In this document: one piece after another, positions 26,426 through 40,675 of the stretch
Numbering within the stretch: position 1 is the stretch's first letter
Layout of the letters: each line of letters begins with the position of its first letter
NCBI GenBank assembly: GCA_964016885.1
Contig: OZ024760.1
Span: 34,968,001 to 35,032,000 of the forward strand
Length of the DNA: 64,000 nucleotides
Origin: Eledone cirrhosa
Taxonomy: Eukaryota
Reading direction: 5' to 3'
Program-made: the position numbers and the translations under genes
The notes under the pieces: model-generated
Seen by the model: only the letters and a program-made list of their open reading frames with translations
The model's database searches: none
What the model was told of the DNA's origin: nothing

Positions 26426-28388
26426 AATTCCATATATGGTAAAAGTGATTGTCACAAGGATTGGTCAAAAGTTTGTTATTTCTATCATGGCATTTTGTGG
26501 AAGGTAGGGGTAGCTGAACTTGCCAGTAGAAGAAAGAGGGAGAGGGAGTGGAGGAAACCTAGTCGAGCGTTGAAAGTGACAACTACAGCAGATTCTAAGG
26601 ATAGGAGGTTGAAAAAAAGTATACTAGAGAAGGGGAGGGGGGAGGAAGTCGAAACAATAAGTAAATCTATATGGAGTAAATATATAGAAAAATATAAAAA
26701 ATATAAAAAATATTAAAAAAACATAATTTCTGGTTACTATTCCCCTTCCACAATCATCAAATCTCTCACTGGTACTGCCAAGCTATAGAAAAGTTTAATA
26801 GGTGGGACGGAATACTAAATACGAGATTGTAGTGAAAGAATTTTATGAGTTATTAGTAATCGGCCAAATCTATCTTACAATGACAGGTCAACAAGTAGGG
26901 GGCCAAAATACTAAAAAAAAAAAAAAAAAATAGTACGAAATAATTAATCAGGGCCCGAAACTAATACAAAATATTAATTCAGATTCCCGAAACATGAATA
27001 CTAATACGAAATATTAATTCAGATTCCCGAAACATGAATACTAATACGATATATATGAGTACTGCTACAATACATAAATTCTAATACAAACTACATAAGT
27101 GCTCGTACGATATATATGAAAAACTAATACGAAAAATTAATTCAGAATCCCCCCCCCCCTCTCCCCCACACACACACCAAAAAAAAAAAAATAAATACTG
27201 ATATACGAGAAACTAAAGCAGAAATACCACAAAGAAATCTAGAAATCACGGAAAAGGGGCAGCAATCAGAGAAGAAAGCAAGTATCTGGGGTCTAGCACA
27301 TCTGCTATAAAAAGCGGAATCGGCTAATTCTATCATAGAATAAGGGGGGGGGTTACTGAGGCTACAGAGGACCGAAGGGCTGCCTCGGGGTGGGCGAGAA
27401 GGTGAAAAGAACGACGACAAAGAAGGAGATCTGAGGTGGAAGGACTAGGATGGGATGGGGGAAGAAGGAAATATAGATGTCGTCGTTCTTTTCACCTTCT
27501 CGCCCTCCCCGAGGCAGCCCTTCGGTCCTCTGTAGCCTCAGTACCCCCACCCCCCTTATTCTATGATAGAATTGGTCGATTCCGCTTTTTATAGCAGATG
27601 TGCTAGACCCCAGATACTTGCTTTCTTCTCTGATTGCTGCCCCATTTCCGTGATTTCTAGATTTCTTAGTGGTATTTCTGCTTTAGTTTCTCGTATATCA
27701 GTATTTTTTTTTGTGGGGGGGGGGGATTCTGAATTAATTTTTCGTATTAGTTTTTCATATATATCGTACGAGCACTTATGTAGTTTGTATTAGAATTTAT
27801 GTATTGTAGCAGTACTCATATATATCGTATTAGTATTCATGTTTCGGGAATCTGAATTAATATTTCGTATTAGTTTCGGGACCCTGATTAATTATTTCGT
27901 ACCAGTTTTTTTTGTTTTTTTTAAGTATTTTGGCCCCTACCTGTCATTGTAAGATAGATTTGGCCGATTACTACTAACTCATAAAATTCTTTCCCTACAA
28001 TCTCGTATTTAGTATTCCGTCCCACCTATTAAACTTTTCTGTAGAGATTTGATGATTGTGGAAGGGGAATAGTAACCAGAAATTGTGTTTTTTTTATATT
28101 TTTTATATTTTTTATATTTTTCTATATATTTACTCCATATAGATTTACTTATTGTTTCGATTCCCCCCCCCTTCTCTAGTATACTTTTTTCAACCTCCTT
28201 TTCTTAGAATCTGCTGTAGTTGTCACTTTCAACGCTCGACTGGGTTTCTTCCACTCCCTCTCCCTCTTTCTTCTACTGGCAAGTTCAGCTACCCCTACCT
28301 TCCATAAAATGCCATGATAGAATCATGTGTCTCAATAACAAACTTTTGACCAATCCTTGTGACAATCACTTTTACCATATATGGGATT

Positions 28389-28614: not shown

Positions 28615-30387
28615 GTAGGTCCATATCTTCCCCGGATTCTTCATAAACCTTAGGTTGGTCGCTATTAAGTTCGCCTCCAGCAGGGTGTCTCTCAGTAGTC
28701 TTCCATTTCGGTTGGTGTTATTATGGAAGTACCAGCAAGGATCTTCACTGCCCTCGTTACTCAGATGTGCATTGAAGGTCACCCTCAACACTCACGGGGA
28801 GACAGGCATTATTTCCCTCACCAATAGACTGGTTTTTGTGCTGAAAACAAGACCCACTCCTCCCACTGCAGCATTGGTCATGTTCCTCACTGCCAATGTG
28901 GTGATGAGCTGGCTCCTCTTCCCAATCATCACACTCCCCACGGGCTCATCGTGTAGGATCCTGTGTTCTTGGATCGCAAGTATCTGTATACCACTCTCCT
29001 CGAACACATGTCCCAATCCTCTCTCTTCTCCAGCGTCCGAATAGTCCTCACATTCAAAGTGCCCATTTTGATGGCTCTTCTGTAGGACAAAACTGCATTC
29101 TTTATATTTGTCTCAGAGACAGCTGATCCATCATCCGCTAGCCTTCTCTGTGGCTCTAAGCCAGCAGTGTCATAACGACCAGACTGCTCCTTGACAGTGT
29201 AATTAGGGGCTCTAACCCTAGTGCTGTTAAATCGACTCTCCATATTTCTTTTCAATGCTGGCAATACCTTACCAGAACGGCTTCGGAGAGGGAAGATCAA
29301 CCACCACTCACATCCTGATGCTGGGGAGGATATTAGAGGGAGCTAGAGCAAAGTGCCTTCCTGTGGTCATGGTTTTCATTGACTTTAGGAAGGCCTTTGA
29401 TTCTGTGGACCGTCACTGCCTGATGAAGATCTTACAGGCTTATGAAATCCCCAAGAAGATAGTGGACCTGATATCACTGCTCTACACCAACACCAAAGTC
29501 CAAGTCATTACACCTGATGGGATGACAGAGTTCTTTGACATACTGGCTGGAGTGCGCCAGGGAGATACATTGGCTCCCTACCTTTTTATCCTCGTAGTGG
29601 ACTATTGTATGCGCCTTGCACTTGAGAAACACCAGGACTCTGGCTTTACTGTAGCACCGGCTCAGAGCAGGAGAGTTAAGGCGAAAAAGGTATCAGATGC
29701 TGAATTTGCCGACGACATGGTTTTGGTGACAAATACAGTGAAAGAGGCAGAGGATTTGATGCGGGAGGTTGAGACTGTGTCGATGAGTGTGGGGCTGAGA
29801 ATGAATGAGACTAAAACAAAATATCTGGTAGAGAATGTTGAGAAGCTAGAGGGGATTACTAATGTAGGCGGGAAGCCGCTGGAATTGGTTGATTTGGGAG
29901 CAAAGATTGGGAATACAGAAGATGATGTGGTTGAGAGGAAGAGCAAAGCCTGGGCGGCGTGCCACTTGAGATCGGTGTGGAAGTCTGTGCTGCTGTACGG
30001 GTCTGAGACTTGGACACTGACCAAGAAACTCACCCAGATGGTGGATGAGTGCTACACGAGAATGCTGAGGATGGCTCTGAACATTAATCAGTATACACTG
30101 AGGATGAAAAACTCAGAGCTGTATGGGAGCCTCCCAAAGGTCAGCTCAAAAGTGACACAGAGGAGACTGAGGTTAGCTGGACATGCTCACCGACATCCAG
30201 AGTTGACATTGCACTCAGTGCTCCTGTGGGAGCCCCTACATGGACACACTGGAAGAGGAAGACCAAGGTTAACGTATGTTGATGCCCTAAGGACAGACAC
30301 TGGTCTGTTGGAGACGCAGGACATGGCAGCGATAATGAGGGACAGGGACCGCTGTAGAGAACTCGCTGGAATTTTACCCGCTCTAGA
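28615..30387. mobile_element. RTE-like LINE with inverted 5' (APE) segment joined to a sense RT/3' segment
   Basis: 28615-29270 (-): KMGTLNVRT, ILAIQEHR, GGVGL, FNAH, NRNG.LL. 29270-30387 (+): QNGF, FIDFRKAFD, GVRQGDTLAP, FADD, LLYGSETW, RRLRLAGH. Confidence 0.85.
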
Positions 30388-30422
30388 ATATATATATACA
30401 CTTATGTATATAAATATGCACT

Positions 30423-30483
<61 letters not shown>

Positions 30484-30650: not shown

Positions 30651-30686
30651 ATATATATATATATATTTATTAAAATAACAGATTAA

Positions 30687-30737
30687 AGTTGAAGCAAATA
30701 ATCGCTGCTTTCACCCTTAACGAGATCTTCTGAAACT
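30687..30737 (-). ncRNA. Hammerhead variant with CAGAAGA core (family I, 3' pLTR)
   Basis: AGTTT-CAGAAGA-TCTC-GTTAA-GGGT-GAAA-GCAGCGATTATTTGC-TT-CAACT. Confidence 0.7.
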
Positions 30738-31739
30738 AACAAAGTCAATCTGTGAACGCAGAAGTGAATATTTCAAAAAACGTTGCAACCGAAGGAAGAC
30801 AGGAAGACGATACTTTGGTCCGTGGAAACGTTCCCTGGCAAAGAACGTGAAAAAACGAATATAATACGTCATTATTTGGAGCGGTGAAAAACAATTACAC
30901 GCAAAGACAAAACCACGTTTGTGGTATAAAAGAAGTCGTAGACTAATATTCTATTAGGTGGTTCATAGAGACGTTCTCTGGCAATGAACGGAAAAAACGA
31001 AGATAATACGTCATATGTGGATCGAGGAGAACAATTACACGCAAAGACAAAACCACGTAAATGGTATAACTGAAGTCGTAGACTAAAATTCTAACTAGGA
31101 AACCGAATGATTCTCGGCTTCAGAGTTAAGAATAACGTAAATAAAATACAGAGGTAATTGAAATTAAATAAATACATACACGCATCCATATACGTACATA
31201 CACAAGCATACGCGAAAACACTCGCCATAGGTATACAAATACACGCATGTACACAAAAAAAACCCGCACGCACATACAGAACCCACGCAACGCCTGTACC
31301 CGCCCGCATACGGATGTATACACCAAATACACATAAAAATATATATTAAAAAAAAATATATATATGTGTGTGTGTGCGTGTATACATATAATTAAATAAA
31401 CGTATATAAATAAATACGTATATAACAAGCGCACACACATACCTACATGTAAATACACATATGTTTGGAGACGTACGTCAACCAAAACACAAAATACACA
31501 TATACACACACCCTACATACGTATGAACCCGCATACTCACACAGACGCAAAACTCTCGTATACACATAACCAAAAGCATATGTACCAGAATATATAATAT
31601 ATATGCCATAACATATACAATCAAATAAACGTACGAGAAGGCATACGTACCTTCACAAAACATACAACACATCAACACGTAAAATATCCGCGTATAGTTC
31701 GTACTATCCGTTAGGGTTAAATGTGGGGCTGTAATACAG

Positions 31740-33832
31740 GAAAGTTTTGTGGATTTATGTTTACAAGCCGAAATTGCCTCAGATTTTTTGTTTAAGATGT
31801 GGTGTTTGGCGTAGAGTATTTCCACGGCCTCAGCGGCGCAGAGGTCACATGGTCTTTTATTTCCGTTATATAATCTAGCCCTAGCTAGGATCTCCCAGTG
31901 TAACTTATATTGGGTGTGGTTGTCTTTTAGACTCCAGATATGAGCTGAAAGTGACGTCATATTCCTTCTTAAAGGGTTACGAAAAGAATGGGCATGCATG
32001 TAAAGACGCTGCTTGAATCTATTGGCGGTTAACCCTATGTAGGCCCTACGGGATGTGGGTGTTTCAACCTTACATTTGTAGACAAAGTTACTAGAGAGGC
32101 ATTTCCCGGATATGGGCAGTCAACCAGATTCCTACAATTACAGTTAGTACTAACTACAGGGTGGTACGTGTTCCTACGGCTAGGTAGTTAAGCTAAATTT
32201 GAAGCTGTGATGTTATGTGCAAGGTTAGGAGTCGTAGAGTAAGAAATTTTAATAGTATTTCTATTAAAAATGTTACTATATTTATGTGTAGGGGGAAAAT
32301 GCTTCATAGTAAGGGAGAGAACGATCTTAGCTAATGGTGTGGCCACCTCCATATTATATGGTGAGTTATACCATATAATGCGTCGGGATCTATTTCTTCT
32401 AGGTCTATTCTCGTACTCTGTATATGCTACCTTATCGACAAATCCACTCCGAGCAAGAGCTTCATTGTAATATGTGGAATGGTCGTTGAAAATATGCTCG
32501 TTAGTAGATAGACGAGAAGGCCTCAAAGAAACGTTTCTTACCAGGTTCTTGGTTATGCTGGCAGGATGGTTAGAATGCTTACTTATGTAATTAAGCGTAT
32601 CATTCGGGTTTTTATACGGGTAATGCAAGCCATTCGATAAATTGAGAGTAACGTCGAGGTAATTAACGACCGAGAGGTTGACTTCAACCTGTATGGAGAA
32701 GTTGAAGCCTTTAAAGAAGGCCGTGAGTTCTTTTCTGAACCTGTCGCAAGCACGTGGGCCGCACTTAGTCATGGTCAAAAGACCATCATCACGGTACAAA
32801 CCACCGCCCACGTTGGGGAATTCGTCCTTGATAGAGAAAAGAAGGAAAAGGCCGATAAGATCAGTAACCTCCGCAGAATCGCTGGCGCCCATACTCACGT
32901 CGAATGGGGTACTATTGGATTTTTTAATCCAAATAGAGTCGTCGAAATTAATCACCAACTTACGGGCATTGAGGATGACATCAACTTCGAAATTCTTAAC
33001 CACTGTGAGTGTTTTAGCGAAATTGATAGCTCTAAGGAGAAGTGGTAAAGTGATGGAGGAGTAATTATTATTGATGTCGAATTGGATAAAACGGCAATGT
33101 TCCTTGTTGCATATGCCGTTGAACCAATCAATCACCGCGAAAGAATTGTTCCACAGTGCAAGAGGGGCCAAACTTCTAATTTCAGGTATAATTCTATCAA
33201 GAATCCTTTTACTAAGTCTACCTAAATCGAACTTCATAGGGTTAATAAGCCGAATAGAGGGGTTGTTCGGAAAATTGGATTTGTGATCCTTCAGGGTAAA
33301 GTGGGGAGAAATAGGGTCCAGAGGTTCAGTCCGATCCAGGATGTTGAGATCAGAGGTGATTTTAAATCCAGCATCGTTGATTTCATTAATGACGCTCCGA
33401 TTAGTTTTACGGTAATCCTTAGTTACAGCATTATGTAGCAGTTGATGGTAAGTACTGCGCTCCACTTGATATAGATTGCCAGTTTTGTCGGAATGGACGT
33501 GCACGGCATTAGAATCCTTAATAGAACGAATTCTATTCTTCAGGTCCTGCTGGAACGAATTGCTCCTATTCCGAAATTTGATACTCCGTATGAGTTCCAA
33601 GACATCATTTTCGAAGGGTATCAATGCTGTGTTACTCGGAGGGTATTTTATAGGTTTTAAACCCAAATTTATCCTGTTTGTTGTCTGCTTTTCCCTGATT
33701 ATCGAAATAAAAGGCACGCCAACGCAACCTTTTAATGAACGCGTCTGTTTTCTGTATCAGGAGTTTTAGGTATGTTTTCCTGCTTGGTACGGGTATGTTC
33801 TTTGTAGAAATATTCACATGTTGTTTCTGCAT
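31740..33832 (-). pseudogene. PLE RT + GIY-YIG ORF with a few frameshifts/stops (CxCx5C type)
   Basis: STKNIP..FIKRLRWRA; SDKTGN; RLINP; FIQFDI; FDVSMG; GLYRDDGL; NYLDVTLNL; SNHP; IIWYN; CNCRNLVDC; FVY..YIG; CDLC. Confidence 0.92.
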
Positions 33833-33986
33833 GATGAATATAAGTAAATGGAGTGCTCAACCAAGGGAGCCAAATAGTAATAATAATAAATTTGAAGACT
33901 AAAATCCAAAGAGGGCTCGATAAGGATAAATATATATCAAATATATAAGAACCGTAGAGCAAATATTTATTAAAATAACAGATTAA

Positions 33987-34037
33987 AGTTTAAGCAAAGA
34001 ATCGCTGCTTTCACCCTTAACGGGATCTTCTGAAACT
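33987..34037 (-). ncRNA. Hammerhead variant with CAGAAGA core (family I, 5' pLTR)
   Basis: AGTTT-CAGAAGA-TCCC-GTTAA-GGGT-GAAA-GCAG..TTGC-TT-AAACT; perfect stem I. Confidence 0.78.
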
Positions 34038-34214
34038 AACAAAGTCAATCTGTGAACGCAGAAGTGAATATGTCAAAAAACGTTGCAACCGGGGGAAGAC
34101 AGGAAGACGATACTTTGGTTCGTGGAAACGTTCCCTGACAAAGAACGGGAAAAAACGAATATAATACGTCATTAATAGGAGCGGTGAAAAACAATTACGC
34201 GCAAAGATAAAACC

Positions 34215-34582
34215 GGGACCAATTCAGGTGAAATAATTGTGCCGTATTGTTGTTATAAGCTGCGAGTGTGATTTTTGTCATGGGTGGATAAGCACGAGGC
34301 TCAAGCCTTGGGTGTACCTTAAAGGTGATGCCAACATCATTTGGGCAAAGCTGATGGAATATTTTCCACATCATGCAGATAATGTAGCGCTCACGGCGAC
34401 GTTGGAGAGAATAAAGGTTGAGCTTTTCTAATCGACTCCAATAGTCAAGGCCTGTCATGCTATCTATCTTTTTTGTAATTGACCTTTGGGGTGCTTCAAC
34501 TTTCATGATACTTTGTTTCGTGTGGGGTGACCACAGTGGACAACAGTATTCAAGGTGGGGCCAGGTAAAAGTGGAGAAGAGA
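34215..34582 (-). mobile_element. CR1-clade LINE fragment (post-RT region)
   Basis: PHLEYCCPLWSPH..KVE..QR..TK.I....LDYW.RL.KL.LYSLQRRRERY.I...WKI. Confidence 0.85.
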
Positions 34583-34583
34583 A

Positions 34584-34646
<63 letters not shown>

Positions 34647-34745
34647 GTAGGAGGTGAGTTTTATTGTAGTACAATAAAGCAATGCAGATATCGGATAAGA
34701 AGCACTCTACAGTTTGTAGGACTGGAGTATACATAATATATATAT

Positions 34746-36430
34746 AAGAACAAAAGATGGTTAAAGGAGTTCCATGTATTTTATTATGCGCATTTCAAAA
34801 ACAAACATCATCATGCAATAATATTTGTGTTTTCATCAGATAAAACAGGAGGACATGATATGAAGGCTAAAAAACACTTGTGGATAGTACAGTTTTAAAT
34901 CAACATATGAGAAGTAGTTTTAGATTGATGTGTGATATTGGGAAAAATATTTTATTTAGAGGGGGGTGGGTGGAAAGGATGAAAAAAAAAGAGGAGGAGA
35001 TGAGAGTGAAGGTGGAGAGGGAGGAATATAATGAGGAAGGATGAGATAGGAGGAGAGATGGGTGATAGAGAGAGAGAGATAGTTTTTATAACTGAGAAAG
35101 TTATATTGTTTTACATAGAGAGGTTGAAAACCGTTGGAAGATAATGTATAAATTAAAAGAATTTGAAAATTAACGAAGGGAAAAATATGTACGAAGAAGG
35201 AGAGGGAGTTAATATGTATTGAGAATAAAAAGTTTGATGATAGAGAGAAGAGAATAATGAATTGCGGATGAATATTCTAACGTCAAAAAAAGTGTGTATG
35301 TTTACAAGTATTATGGAAATTTGAAAATTAACGAAGAGAAAAAATGTAAAGTTAAGGTTTGTATATTGAAGGATTTGAGAAAAATAATGTGAAGTTGAGG
35401 TTTGTATATTGAAGGAATTGATAATATGTGCGAAGAAAAAGTTAATATGTATTGAGAATGAGTTAGATGATAGGGGAAAAAAATATGTATTGTGAATGAG
35501 TTAGATGATAGGGAGAAAAAAATGAATTAAGGATGAATAATCTGGCGTCAAAACAAATGTATATGTTTACGAAGGATTTTACAAGGTGAAAATAGAGTAA
35601 GGGTAATGAGTAAACAAGTGTTATAGAGTGTATAATACCCTTTGAAATAAGGTAGGAAGATGGGTATATTTTAAAAGAGGTGTATGTATATGTGCCTTTG
35701 AGAAAAAGATTCTAAATTGATAAAGAATTGAATATTTTACAAGGTGAAAATAGAGTAAGGGTAATGAGTAAACAAGTATTATAGAGTGTATAATACCCTT
35801 TGAAATAAGGTAGGAAGATGGGTATATTTTAAAAGAGGTGTATGTATATGTGCCTTTGAGAAAAGATTCTAAATTGATAAAGAATTGAATATTAGCTGTA
35901 TACTTTGTGAAATGTTTTATGGAATTTATGCAAGCAGATAGAAAACAAGTCAGTTCGTCTATTTATTATAGAATCTAGATTAGAGATAATGGTAAATTTT
36001 TCATTTAGGCAGAGATTGCAGATTTTAGATAGAGAGCTGTTCAAGTATGAAGACGCAGAAGAAACCTTCTTCCAAAAGATGGTATATTTAATGTTTTTGT
36101 CTTTCAAGGACCATGTGAGTTCTGAGAGAGCCGTGTTGGTTCTTTTAAGTTTGTATTTAAAAGATGAATGATGATTATAGAGACGAGCTTTAAAAGAGGT
36201 GGAAGTGGAGCCAAAATAGGTGAAGGAATTGGTGCTAGTTATAACTTTACATTCATAAATTAAGTTTTTATCAAGACAATGGTTGTTGAGAGGACATTTA
36301 TTTTTAATAGGGCAATTGCAATTAGAGAGATTATTAATGAGTGACCTAGTGTTATCTATAGAAGGAATTGGATTGGAGAAGTTGTTTGCGATAGGAATAA
36401 TAGTTTCTTGATTTAGAGTTGATTTAGAGT
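34746..36430 (-). mobile_element. 5'-truncated PLE: GIY-YIG (35892-~36330), long CT-rich 3' UTR with a ~158-bp tandem duplication (35577-35892), and HHR pLTR
   Basis: CNCPIKNKCPL..NLIY..YFGST..FK.R..NH..SF..TALS..W.LK..CNLCL.EK..INRR..LFS.C.H. Confidence 0.88.
34779..34845 (-). ncRNA. Canonical minimal type I hammerhead motif (family J)
   Basis: TTTTAT-CTGATGA-AAACACAAATATTAT..ATGATGTTTGTTTT-GAAA-TGCGCA-TA-ATAAAA; perfect stem I; palindromic loop III. Confidence 0.85.
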
Positions 36431-36454
36431 TCTTATATATTATATATATATATA

Positions 36455-36681
36455 TTAAAATACCAGATTAAAGTTTAAGCAAAGAATCGCTGCTTTCAGC
36501 CTTAACGGGATCTTCTGAAAGTTTCAGAATATCCCGTAAATGGTGAAAGCAGCGTTTCTTTGCTTAAATTTAATCTGTTATTTTAATAAATATTTGCTCT
36601 AGAGTTCTTATATATTTGATATATATTTATCCTTATCGAGCCCTCTTTGGATTTTAGTCTTCACATTTATTATTATTACTA
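36455..36681. repeat. Fold-back solo pLTR of the family I PLE with two back-to-back HHR motifs (36472-36520 minus; 36520-36570 plus)
   Basis: TCTTCTGAAA-G-TTTCAGAATA centred on 36521; 36520-36681 matches the reverse complement of 33875-34037. Confidence 0.85.
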
Positions 36682-36884
36682 TACCACGTTCCAACCATCC
36701 ATCCATATCTTCCAGGTATCTCTCTATTTCCCAATTGCAAATGTTCCGCTCACACTATTATTGTTGTATTTATCATTTCACTAGCCTCCACAACACATCT
36801 ATTTTTTTACCCTCGTTTTCTTTCCCGTGCTGTCTCTCTACGAAGTCATCTACTCCCTTCCTCTCTCTTACATTATTATTAGTG

Positions 36885-37199: not shown

Positions 37200-40100
37200 C
37201 TATAGGCCATGATGGCTACCTATCTCACAATTTCCATCCCGCCCACCCCCTCACACCATCATAGCCTATTCGACCAATCAAACCTCAGCATGTCCACCAT
37301 TACCAACCCCAACAAACTCTGAAGCTTCAATTCAGAGACAGGAAGCATACACACACCCCTGCAAAAATCGACCATTTCCCACGAATGTTGACAAATGCCC
37401 AAAACTCCGAGTTGGTACCATCAATGTAAGCACAATGAAAGGAAGAGCAGGAGAAATCGTAGAGATGCTAGAGCGAAAGGAAATTGATGTGTGTTGTGTG
37501 CAAGAGACTAGATGGAGAGGAGAGTCTGCTCGAGTCCTTGTAGGAAAAAGTCAGTGCTACAAATTTTTCTGGGTGGGAAATGACGATGGGATGGGTGGTG
37601 TAGATATCCTACTACCTGATAAGTGGGTAGGGTGAACGCAAGAATCATTAAACTCAGACTAGTCCTGAATAAAACAATTACAACAATAATATCAGCTTAC
37701 GCACCCCAATCGGGGTTGCCAGACGAACTTAAGGATAGGTTTTACGAGTCCTTAATGCACACTACTGCTCTAACAAACGACAATGACTTCCTAATCATTG
37801 CGGGAGATTTTAACAGACACGTAGGTAAACACCGTGGCGGCTTCTATAGAGTCCATGGAGGCCATGAGGATGGCACAAGAAATGAAGAAGGATTCAGGCT
37901 TCTAGAATTCTGCGACGCCAATGACATGTTGATATGTAACACAAACTTAAAAAAACCCGACAACCACCTGATCACCTATAGATCAGGGGAGCATTCTAGT
38001 CAGATAGATTTTATCCTCATTGGAGGACGTGACAGATGGATGGTTGTAAACACAAAAGCCTTCCCTAGGGAGGAATGTACCTCCCAACATAGCTTAGTTG
38101 TCAGCGACCTCACGGTCAGAACTAGACGAACGTGGAAACAGAAGCCAACCTGGAGAAGAAAGATCTGGAAGCTGAAAGACCCCTCAGCCAGTAACAGATT
38201 TAAAGATATTTTACTCAACGCCTATGACAGTAAAGAAGAACATTCAATGTAGAAGAGCACAGGGAGTTCCTAAAAAATAACTTACTAAAGGCGACGGTTC
38301 AGATCTGTGGCTGGAGTAAGACCACAGGCAGGTGGAACAATAAGGTAGATGAGGCAGTTAAGGCCAAGAGACAGGCATGGAAAGAATGGAAGAACGGGGG
38401 AAGCAGGGTACATTACATAGAGACCAAGAGGGAAGCTAGGCGACAAATATACTTAGCTAGGAGAGAAGCAGAGGATAGAAAATTCAAGCATGTTTTGCAA
38501 CGTGAGGACCAGAAACAGGAGGTGTTCAAGATTGCGAGGCAGTGTGTCAGAGAGAATTGTGATGTCATTGGAAAGAAGTGTATCCGGAGTGATAAAGGTG
38601 AGCTTGCCCTCACAAGTGCTGAGAAGAAAGATGCGTGGAAGAGCCATTATGATAGATTACTAAATGAGGAGAATGCATGGGAAGAAGAGACCCTACCCTA
38701 AGTAGACCATATAGAGGGGTCAGAAACAGTGTAGTAAGTAAGGCAATCAAAGATATGAAGACGGGGAAGGCAACCGGTCCATCGGGTATAGCTGCCGAGA
38801 TGCTGAAGGCATCTAGATCAGTAGGTCACACCATAACCACACGTATTGTTAACCAGGTAATATTAGAAGGTGTCGTACCAAAGGATTGGTGCAGTAGCAT
38901 CATTGTCAACTGCTACAAAGGTAGAGGTGATGCAGTAGATAGAGGAAACTACAGAGGTATAAAGCTGATGGACCAGATCATGAAAATAACAGAAAGAGTT
39001 ATAGCACAGTTGATTAGGGACCGGGTGAAACTAGATGAGATGCAATTTGGGTTTGTGCCAGGAAGAGGCACCACTGATGCCCACTTCCTTGTGAAGCAGT
39101 TACAGGAAAAGTACCTAGCTAAAAGTAAGCCACTCTACCTAGCATTCGTCAATCTCGAGAAAGCCTTTGACAGAGTTCCCCGTGCTATAATCTGGTGGGC
39201 TCTTAGAAAATTAGTAGATGAATGGCTTGTGAAAGCTGTACAAGCCATGTATAGGGGAGCAGTCAGCAAAGTTAGGATTAGCAATGAGTATAGCGAGGAA
39301 TTTAGCGTACAGGTCGGTGTCTACCAGGGCTCTGCTCTTAGCCCTCTCCTGTTCATCATAGTCCTGCAGGCAATAACGGAGGAGTTTAAGACCGGATGCC
39401 CATGGGAACTCCTGTATGCAGATTACCTCGCACTTATAGCTGAATCTATGGTAGAACTAGAGAAGAAATTCCAAACTTGGAAGCAGGGTCTAGAAAGAAA
39501 GGGTTTCAAAGTCAACCTGACAAAGACTAAGGTCCTTGTAAGTAGACGAGAAAACAGAACCAGATCCCCTCAGGGAAATGGCCTTGCTCAGTATATAGGA
39601 AAGGTGTATGTAGGAACTCCATTCTCTGCCCCAAATGCAAACAATGGGTACACAAAAGATGTAGCGGGATCTCAGGAAGCTTAACTAAGAATGTAGGCTT
39701 CACATGTAGCAGCTGTGCTGGGACAGCAAGCAGCAAACAGCCACAGGAAACAAGTACCACCAAACTCTGGGAGGGCTCTGTAGAAACAGTAGACAGCTTC
39801 TGCTACCTAGGTGACCGAATTAGCAGCGGAGGTGGGTGTTCGGAAAGTACAATAACTAGGGTAAGAACGAGATGGAAGAAGTTGCTAGCTGAAAAAGGCT
39901 TCTCCCTCAAAATGAAAGGCAGACTTTATGATGAGTGTATACGAACAGCAATGTTACATGGTAGTGAGACCTGGGCGCTGAAGGTGGAAGACTTGCATAG
40001 ATTAAAACGAAACGAAGCCTGCATGCTCCGATGGATGTGTAATAGTAATATACGTGAACGGCAAAGCATAAATGAATTGAGAGAGAGACTGAGCATAAGA

Positions 40101-40675
40101 AGAATCAAATACTGTGTGCAGGAGAGGCGGTTGCGTTGGTATGGACATGTGATGCGTATGAAGGATGACAGCTGCATAAAAAGGTGCAGAGCACTAGAAG
40201 TCGATGGAAACTGCAGAGCGGGGAGGCCCAAGAAGACCTGGGATGAGGTGATAAAAGCCGACCTTACCCAATTACACCTCTCAAAGGCGATGACACACGA
40301 CCGTGACCTCTGGCGTCACACAGTAATACAGAAGACCCAACCCCCCACGGGTACAAACTGAAGCATATAGACAATATACCCCCACACCCTCCCATGCAAA
40401 ATGGTCGTGGAGGTGCCACAGCAAAAAAGCACCCAGCCCACACTGTAAAGTGGACATATAGGCGCCACAGAAATAAAGCACCCAGCACTCACAGTAAATG
40501 AGGTTGGTGTTAGGAAGAGCATCCAGCTGTAGAAATCAATCCAGAATCAGTTACCGATGAACAAGACATGGTCAGCCGACCGGACACTGCCCACAACAGG
40601 ACAACCCGTCTAACCCATGCTAGCGTGGAAGAACGGACGTAAAACGTTGATGATGATGATGATGATGATGATGAT
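37200..40675 (+). mobile_element. Degraded near full-length RTE LINE, related to 7218-11280
   Basis: Fragmented APE/RT ORFs 37400-40361 closely similar to the first RTE; (GAT)n tail at 40648-40675. Confidence 0.92.

Follow-up and report, generated by a model that had tools for sequence, protein, structure and literature searches.

Can a hammerhead ribozyme still cut when the uridine at position 4 of its catalytic core is replaced by a purine, and does the element that carries it need it to? The question is raised by a 64,000-nucleotide (nt) stretch of the Eledone cirrhosa genome (assembly GCA_964016885.1, contig OZ024760.1, positions 34,968,001 to 35,032,000 of the forward strand; hereafter the window, with positions counted from its first letter). 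The window holds four copies of a motif that is, judged by its anatomy and by the coding region beside it, a type I hammerhead; it lies in the pseudo-long terminal repeat (pseudo-LTR) of a Penelope-like element that bears hallmarks of the Hydra clade. Adenine at position 4 (A4) is fixed throughout the family of this element. The reading favoured here, tentatively, is that of a slowed and perhaps protein-assisted hammerhead in an element that tolerates slow cutting.

Four copies of the A4 motif

The CAGAAGA core occurs three times on the minus strand (30732-30726, 34032-34026 and 36517-36511), and a CAGAATA core occurs once on the plus strand (36525-36531). An earlier note had claimed A4 for every copy, and A is indeed found at position 4 in 4/4 (30731, 34031, 36516 and 36526). 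The same note described the stems as otherwise present. This holds for copy 2, which is fully intact; copies 1, 3 and 4 each have private decay. In copy 1 one stem II pair is G·U and the base of stem I is mismatched. Copy 3 lacks part of the stem I 5' arm at an inversion junction and has an altered stem II, and copy 4 has G8U, an altered stem II and one base lost from stem I. The copies and the parts of copy 2 are as follows.

30678..30753, minus strand: copy 1, hammerhead of the 3' pseudo-LTR, A4 at 30731, with decay in stem II, loop 3 and the stem I base
33978..34053, minus strand: copy 2, intact A4 hammerhead, assigned by anatomy and homology to published Hydra-clade hammerheads
34053-34045/33986-33978, minus strand: copy 2, distal stem I
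34044-34038, minus strand: copy 2, bulge of 7 nt
34037-34033/33991-33987, minus strand: copy 2, proximal stem I
34032-34026, minus strand: copy 2, core, A4 at 34031
34025/34013, minus strand: copy 2, U10.1·U11.1
34012-34009, minus strand: copy 2, GAAA
after 33992, minus strand: copy 2, predicted cut
36448..36520, minus strand: copy 3, short and 5'-truncated, between the inversion junction and the usual 3' end (+69), A4 at 36516
36520..36683, plus strand: copy 4, head-to-head inverted partner of copy 3, A4 at 36526, G8U

Copy 2 has the type I layout, with three helices round the core and both ends in stem I. It consists of a stem I of 5+9 bp, a stem II of 3 bp, GAAA, a stem III of 5 bp and a U16.1-U17 site. 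Two of its parts had been absent from the earlier description: the U10.1·U11.1 mismatch that closes off stem II, and the 9-bp distal stem I past the 7-nt U-rich bulge, for which folding gives a pairing probability of 0.99. Copy 4 runs from the putative transcription start (-5) to the far 3' end (+158). Rfam returned no hammerhead match at the motif, a weak test because the canonical hammerheads of the window are equally missed. The hammerhead assignment is one of predicted anatomy and homology to the published Hydra-clade hammerheads.

The host element

Copies 1 and 2 belong to the pseudo-LTRs of one damaged element on the minus strand.

33874..34214, minus strand: 5' pseudo-LTR together with an 89-nt 'tail' (33962-33874) between two preferred 3' ends
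32188..33756, minus strand: reverse-transcriptase frame of 522 amino acids from stop to stop, with DKT motif, both ends broken here
31700..32187, minus strand: CxCX5C linker (frameshifted here) and C-terminal GIY-YIG endonuclease without CCHH
30663..30914, minus strand: 3' pseudo-LTR, ending in the (TA)n target 29 nt beyond the predicted cut

Pfam returned no match for the protein of the A4 element, and the reverse-transcriptase frame is assigned by motifs and by similarity among copies. In copy L072 a continuous stretch of 665 amino acids carries, by motifs, the reverse transcriptase followed by the C-terminal GIY-YIG domain in one frame. Less damaged copies contain DKT, the CxCX5C linker, CxxC and CxH near the endonuclease end, and no CCHH; insertions of the family target (TA)n. 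DKT, the CxCX5C linker, the lack of CCHH and (TA)n targets are described as hallmarks of the Hydra clade (PMC8557442). The distance from hammerhead to hammerhead is 3,300 nt, with a long 3' untranslated region; the published size of the clade is 'generally' under 3 kb. By its predicted protein hallmarks the A4 element is Hydra-like, and the non-canonical hammerhead is the one exception.

Fixation of A4

Fixation was scanned with a 31-nt pattern in which position 4 was left free, counting exact genome matches; the reversed control gave 0. A4 was found in 17,572 of the 17,750 matches (99.0%), and the remaining 178 (1.0%) are scattered among G, T and C. The same pattern with G5 changed has 301 matches (1.7%). 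Since this exceeds 178, position 4 decays no faster than its neighbour. Copies collected without using the motif (via the endonuclease or as passengers) also carry A4, in 35/35. For a subfamily distinguished by its bulge, 2,583 matches were counted, with A4 in 97/100 among the matches listed. The genome-wide consensus at position 4 is A, not U. The fixation in a whole family that had been proposed is therefore borne out and is wider than claimed, covering at least two subfamily groups, and the change is older than the insertions, being fixed in the source elements of the family.

The comparison was extended to other organisms through 4 of 20 matching runs (16 studies). No letter other than A is listed for position 34031 in the contigs of the coded organisms J, M, O and P, of which J, M and O are covered by several contigs and P by one contig near its end; these coded organisms may not all be distinct species. 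A relaxed pattern for a U4 sister subfamily sharing the stem ends gave 279 matches, against 96 for the control; those listed are mostly point mutants of the A4 family or chance, and the candidate was rejected. A search of low power for A4 families with different stems gave 781 matches against 435 for the control, with no recurrent family among the 100 listed.

Ancestral state and published relatives

The published Hydra hammerhead rows have CUGA in 26/26 (PMC8557442 File S2, counted by eye), a count biased to U4 because the rows were collected with a canonical descriptor. Among metagenome relatives a hammerhead was found in 4/5 loci, all four with U4 (4/4). Most other Hydra-type families of the genome in which a hammerhead was found have CUGAUGA-type cores. 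Since both the Hydra rows and the metagenome relatives have U4, A4 is, on this comparison, derived from U4 in the ancestor of the family. The same 26 rows contain the U·U pair in 14, U17 in 10 and A7 in 4, and U10.1·U11.1 has been described in natural hammerheads (PMC3088659). Judged against these rows A7, U10.1·U11.1 and U17 are ordinary for the clade and A4 is the only unusual letter.

The Hydra-clade type I hammerheads of PMC8557442, with Hydra-1_aJap as the nearest layout, thus share much with the A4 motif: the sense strand, a place near the 3' end, a short proximal stem I, A7, U10.1·U11.1, a short stem II and a U17 site, as well as (TA)n targets and DKT and CxCX5C in the protein. They differ in having U at position 4 in all rows listed, whereas A is found here, and loop 3 is longer here. 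The A4 family was not found in the files of PMC8557442. The minimal hammerheads of Penelope-like elements, including a U3-A8 variant (PMC4209133), are similar in their pseudo-LTR site, their inverted or truncated copies, their family-wide core variants and the low activity expected of them. The U3-A8 variant is a compensatory pair, whereas U4A has no visible compensation, and stem III can here form within a single copy, unlike that of the minimal hammerheads described there.

The earlier note had also called U4 nearly invariant in hammerheads. Position 4 is not strictly invariant in nature, and U4C is a known working variant: according to PMC3088659 it lowers in vitro activity and supports viroid infection, and it recurs in viroid-like RNAs (PMC9608096; bioRxiv 10.64898/2026.09.16.752053). 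The U4C (CCGA) hammerheads of peach latent mosaic viroid and viroid-like RNAs resemble the present case as a natural position-4 change with the rest of the core intact. They differ in that a pyrimidine replaces a pyrimidine and activity has been demonstrated, whereas here a purine enters a chromosomal retrotransposon family and the activity is a candidate one. No natural U4A hammerhead was found in the literature searched, only U4C, and an earlier report may exist.

Copy ends and a putative transcription start

Among 168 scored 3' ends, counted from C3, 68 lie at +69, 46 at +158 and 2 at the predicted cut (+41). The preferred ends are thus 29 and 118 nt beyond the cut site, and because they lie downstream of it, uncut RNA is the template for insertion. 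This resembles the Poseidon element PAc of Anolis (PMC11167929), where uncut RNA is also inserted and two preferred 3' ends bound a tail downstream of the ribozyme. PAc belongs to another clade and its cleavage has been measured, whereas the A4 motif is known from sequence alone.

The 5' ends cluster sharply at the first base of proximal stem I, where 1,478 genome matches have one extra G. All of the examined G-marked starts (30/30, among L276-L305) have unrelated DNA upstream.

34037, minus strand: putative capped transcription start at the first base of proximal stem I, from extra-G 5' ends

The sharp 5' end is inferred, from known cap copying, to be a capped transcription start copied by the reverse transcriptase; no paper on cap copying for Penelope-like elements was found in the literature searched. 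A start inside the motif would make the motif overlap the promoter, which is a second reason for its conservation. Extra-G 5' ends also offer a way to map promoters of Penelope-like elements from a genome assembly. No RNA run among the listed runs matches the locus DNA, which says nothing on expression.

The 5' ends do not reveal cleavage. Starts at the A4 cut site number 633, compared to 663 and 550 in neighbouring windows, so there is no excess. The canonical U4 family has no peak at its cut site either (50 versus 184 and 52). Since this positive control lacks a peak, the 5'-end footprint says nothing on cleavage. Capped uncut templates were considered as a sign of a dead ribozyme and rejected, because the U4 family also has an extra-G start hot spot, at -69, with the extra G in 4/6 copies (L341, L354, L356 and L370).

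An odd palindrome, TTC-N-GAA, is centred on position 4 and lies beside the inversion hot spot. In a classification of pattern-selected copies without gaps, 14/19 T4 copies lie at junctions near the core, compared to 13/82 A4 copies and 2/10 G4 or C4 copies. The palindrome centre makes template switching a plausible source of the rare T4 copies and of the original change.

Other families of the genome

A pattern built on the linker gave 11,123 matches from many other families. One of these carries CCGAAGA (4,932 matches), with C4 in 99/100 among the matches listed. Its loci include L195, L224 and L215; the family is of Hydra type with U4C fixed over several subfamilies. In an alignment of nine C4 variants, hand-picked to span the subfamilies, the flanks have diverged while the core and stems are kept (98.5% of cells paired), and the central pair of the stem III palindrome is AU, GU or GC. 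In the C4 consensus fold the core pairs, by preference, with a conserved stretch downstream instead of forming the hammerhead, and there is no compensatory pair. This invariant stretch, which can pair with the C4 core strand, is possibly an off-switch.

The relationship of the families was examined by FastTree on 31 loci, all from this analysis, in an alignment anchored on the A4 protein; 3 of 34 loci were left out for short coverage. The C4 family groups with U4 families (support 0.947), and the tree contains no close sister of the A4 family. Protein identity is at most 46% among non-C4 families and 49% at most overall. Because C4 groups with U4 families and A4 stands apart, the two position-4 changes look independent.

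In a few copies examined by eye, the families of L164, L193, L236 and L172 keep stem I, GAAA and the palindrome and have a collapsed CUGANGA strand. No hammerhead motif was seen at the 3' ends of L190, L192 and L239 (also a few copies, by eye). These Hydra-type families without a recognisable core contrast with the published account, in which a hammerhead is always present in the clade. Naiad elements are reported to spread without canonical hammerheads (PMC8557442).

A further Hydra-type family, younger and distinct from the A4 family, is represented in the window by one copy.

34730..36447 (ends approximate), minus strand: 5'-truncated copy of the younger Hydra-type family

The copy sits in the TA tract behind copy 3. 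It has an endonuclease frame (36467-35892) and a canonical U4 hammerhead with its core at 34839 and a long stem II. Many copies of this family have open frames of ~821 amino acids. There are 8,563 genome matches, with U4 in 99/100 among the matches listed.

Constraint on the motif and the question of cleavage

The conservation of the motif could in principle be no more than youth. Among copies collected without the motif, subfamily-diagnostic sites number 0/76 in the motif compared to 19/279 upstream (Fisher p=0.018), with 0/55 at paired or core positions and 0/21 in loops. A larger, motif-selected set has only two subfamily differences inside the motif, both in the unpaired bulge, and the same two changes are fixed in organism O. 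C3, G5, A6, G8, A9, G12, A13, A14, A15.1-U16.1 and H17 are the majority state in all groups. Across Hydra families the stems differ yet still pair. These counts indicate that the whole 76-nt motif is constrained, loops as much as stems. The alternative is a neutral passenger, a dead and unconstrained motif inherited from one successful founder, whose conservation reflects a short history. The lack of a close sister among the sampled families, at the protein identities given above, would suit such a founder, as would the borderline value (p=0.052) that the unbiased set gives when just paired and core positions are counted. Upstream, however, four or more subfamily groups differ at ~7-17% of sites, and they do not differ at paired or core positions, and the same pattern recurs in organism O, so this explanation is very improbable.

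The favoured reading of a slowed hammerhead would run as follows. U4 would have changed to A once in the ancestor of the family and then been fixed, possibly after a template switch at the TTC-N-GAA palindrome, which could flip T and A. U4 contacts the A6-N7 phosphate (PMC3088659). The change to A would weaken this contact and likely lowers self-cleavage at least tenfold, and the slow ribozyme that is left is probably protein-assisted. Slow cutting in vitro has been described for hammerheads of Penelope-like elements even with canonical cores (PMC4209133), and the hammerhead of PAc cleaves only with the protein of the element (PMC11167929). A cut in the 5' copy would cost the RNA its putative cap, and one in the 3' copy its reverse-transcription start sites. 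A slow ribozyme may therefore cost the element little and could even help, and this low cost would explain why position 4 has changed twice, to A here and to C elsewhere. The earlier note had taken membership in a family able to transpose as grounds for a candidate natural core variant. The step from transposition to a working ribozyme does not follow, because ribozyme-dead mutants of a Penelope-like element insert normally in vitro (PMC11167929), templates are uncut and some families of the clade lack a recognisable hammerhead.

Several results weigh against a slow but working ribozyme. The stems are invariant within the A4 family, so that no compensatory pair is found, and with the loops as conserved as the stems the constraint need not stem from catalysis. 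The paired and core positions give the borderline value noted above, and the absence of changes at just the 13 core bases has a probability of 0.09-0.40, which proves nothing. The covariation of the C4 alignment is reached by 166/500 shuffles. The hammerhead is predicted at -13.6 kcal/mol, compared to -15.7 kcal/mol for the minimum fold (z=-0.72), in a nearest-neighbour calculation that ignores tertiary contacts and in which an in-silico U4 version folds no better. In RNA starting at the putative cap, the probability of proximal stem I is at most 0.01. Some abundant Hydra-type families appear to spread without a recognisable hammerhead. In a viroid hammerhead study, U4A reportedly gave no significant self-cleavage and U4C was active. 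A pairwise mutation scan describes low activity for CUGA-turn mutants except the C3-G8 swap, with none rescued (PMC9901934); no U4A value was found in the supplements of that source that were searched.

In a second reading, A4 would have killed catalysis and the sequence would be kept for an internal promoter and transcription start and for a 3' RNA structure to which the protein of the element binds when reverse transcription begins, as an early stage of the ribozyme loss of other families. The putative start at the first base of stem I, the conservation of loops and downstream bases to the same degree as the core, and the sister families with a collapsed core or no motif seen are all consistent with it. 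The predicted minimum fold pairs A4 with U11.1, extending a helix that buries GAAA. In the account of PMC11167929, insertion in vitro does not require cleavage, and the poor activity of CUGA mutants in PMC9901934 agrees. Every other catalytic base, however, is intact across subfamilies and organisms, and the independent C4 family, whose substitution is one that hammerheads are known to tolerate, retains the complete core across a deeper divergence. A dead but conserved fold is nearly as likely on this evidence as the slowed hammerhead.

It is also conceivable that A4 is compensated and the ribozyme nearly fully active, with the rate restored by A7, the U·U pair, a contact between the bulge and loop 2, or a protein. 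Both non-U4 families have A7 and lack G10.1-C11.1, the extended stem I with its U-rich bulge could dock loop 2, and tertiary contacts have been proposed to offset core changes (PMC3088659). Against this, A7 (4/26) and U·U (14/26) also occur with U4 in the Hydra rows and so are not specific to A4, and no rescue within the CUGA turn is described in the pairwise scan of PMC9901934. A purine would also have to stand in for the uridine that contacts the A6-N7 phosphate. Near-full activity is therefore quite improbable.

The favoured reading of slowed cleavage has a bolder extension, considered unlikely. A4 would be a working natural core and a selected brake, and no purine would have been seen before in the uridine turn of such a core. 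Position 4 would act as a repeated dial (U, C, A, then loss) that trades self-cutting against the cap and reverse-transcription start, and the protein of the element itself would switch cleavage on.

Neighbouring features

An inverted pair of Penelope-like elements (11439, minus strand, and 13593, plus strand) has a canonical U4 hammerhead with the same layout, including A7, U·U, U17 and a palindromic stem III. This pair is a natural comparator for the A4 motif. More canonical hammerhead-like cores lie at 19269 (plus strand), 16955 (minus strand) and 55973 (plus strand), and probably belong to other retroelement families. The locus is flanked by broken endonuclease and reverse-transcriptase frames resembling those of long interspersed nuclear elements (28792-30481 and 37213-40361). 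A frame of 270 amino acids (24531-25343, minus strand) resembles, by eye, a retrotransposon gag-type protein. A long near-perfect hairpin at 27367-27530 gives a weak score against a plant microRNA model and is likely an inverted repeat element.

Implications

The role of hammerheads in Penelope-like elements is described as an open question (PMC8557442; PMC11167929), and the A4 family, with cutting likely slowed strongly, would be a natural test of whether such elements need a ribozyme at all. Should A4 cleave, real ribozymes are being overlooked by the accepted core consensus and by the search descriptors based on it. If A4 is dead, the family has passed 17,000 copies with a ribozyme that no longer cuts and whose fold was kept, which would point to a non-catalytic job for the RNA. 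With large U4, C4, A4 and apparently coreless families in one genome, this organism offers a direct test of whether the speed of cleavage matters.

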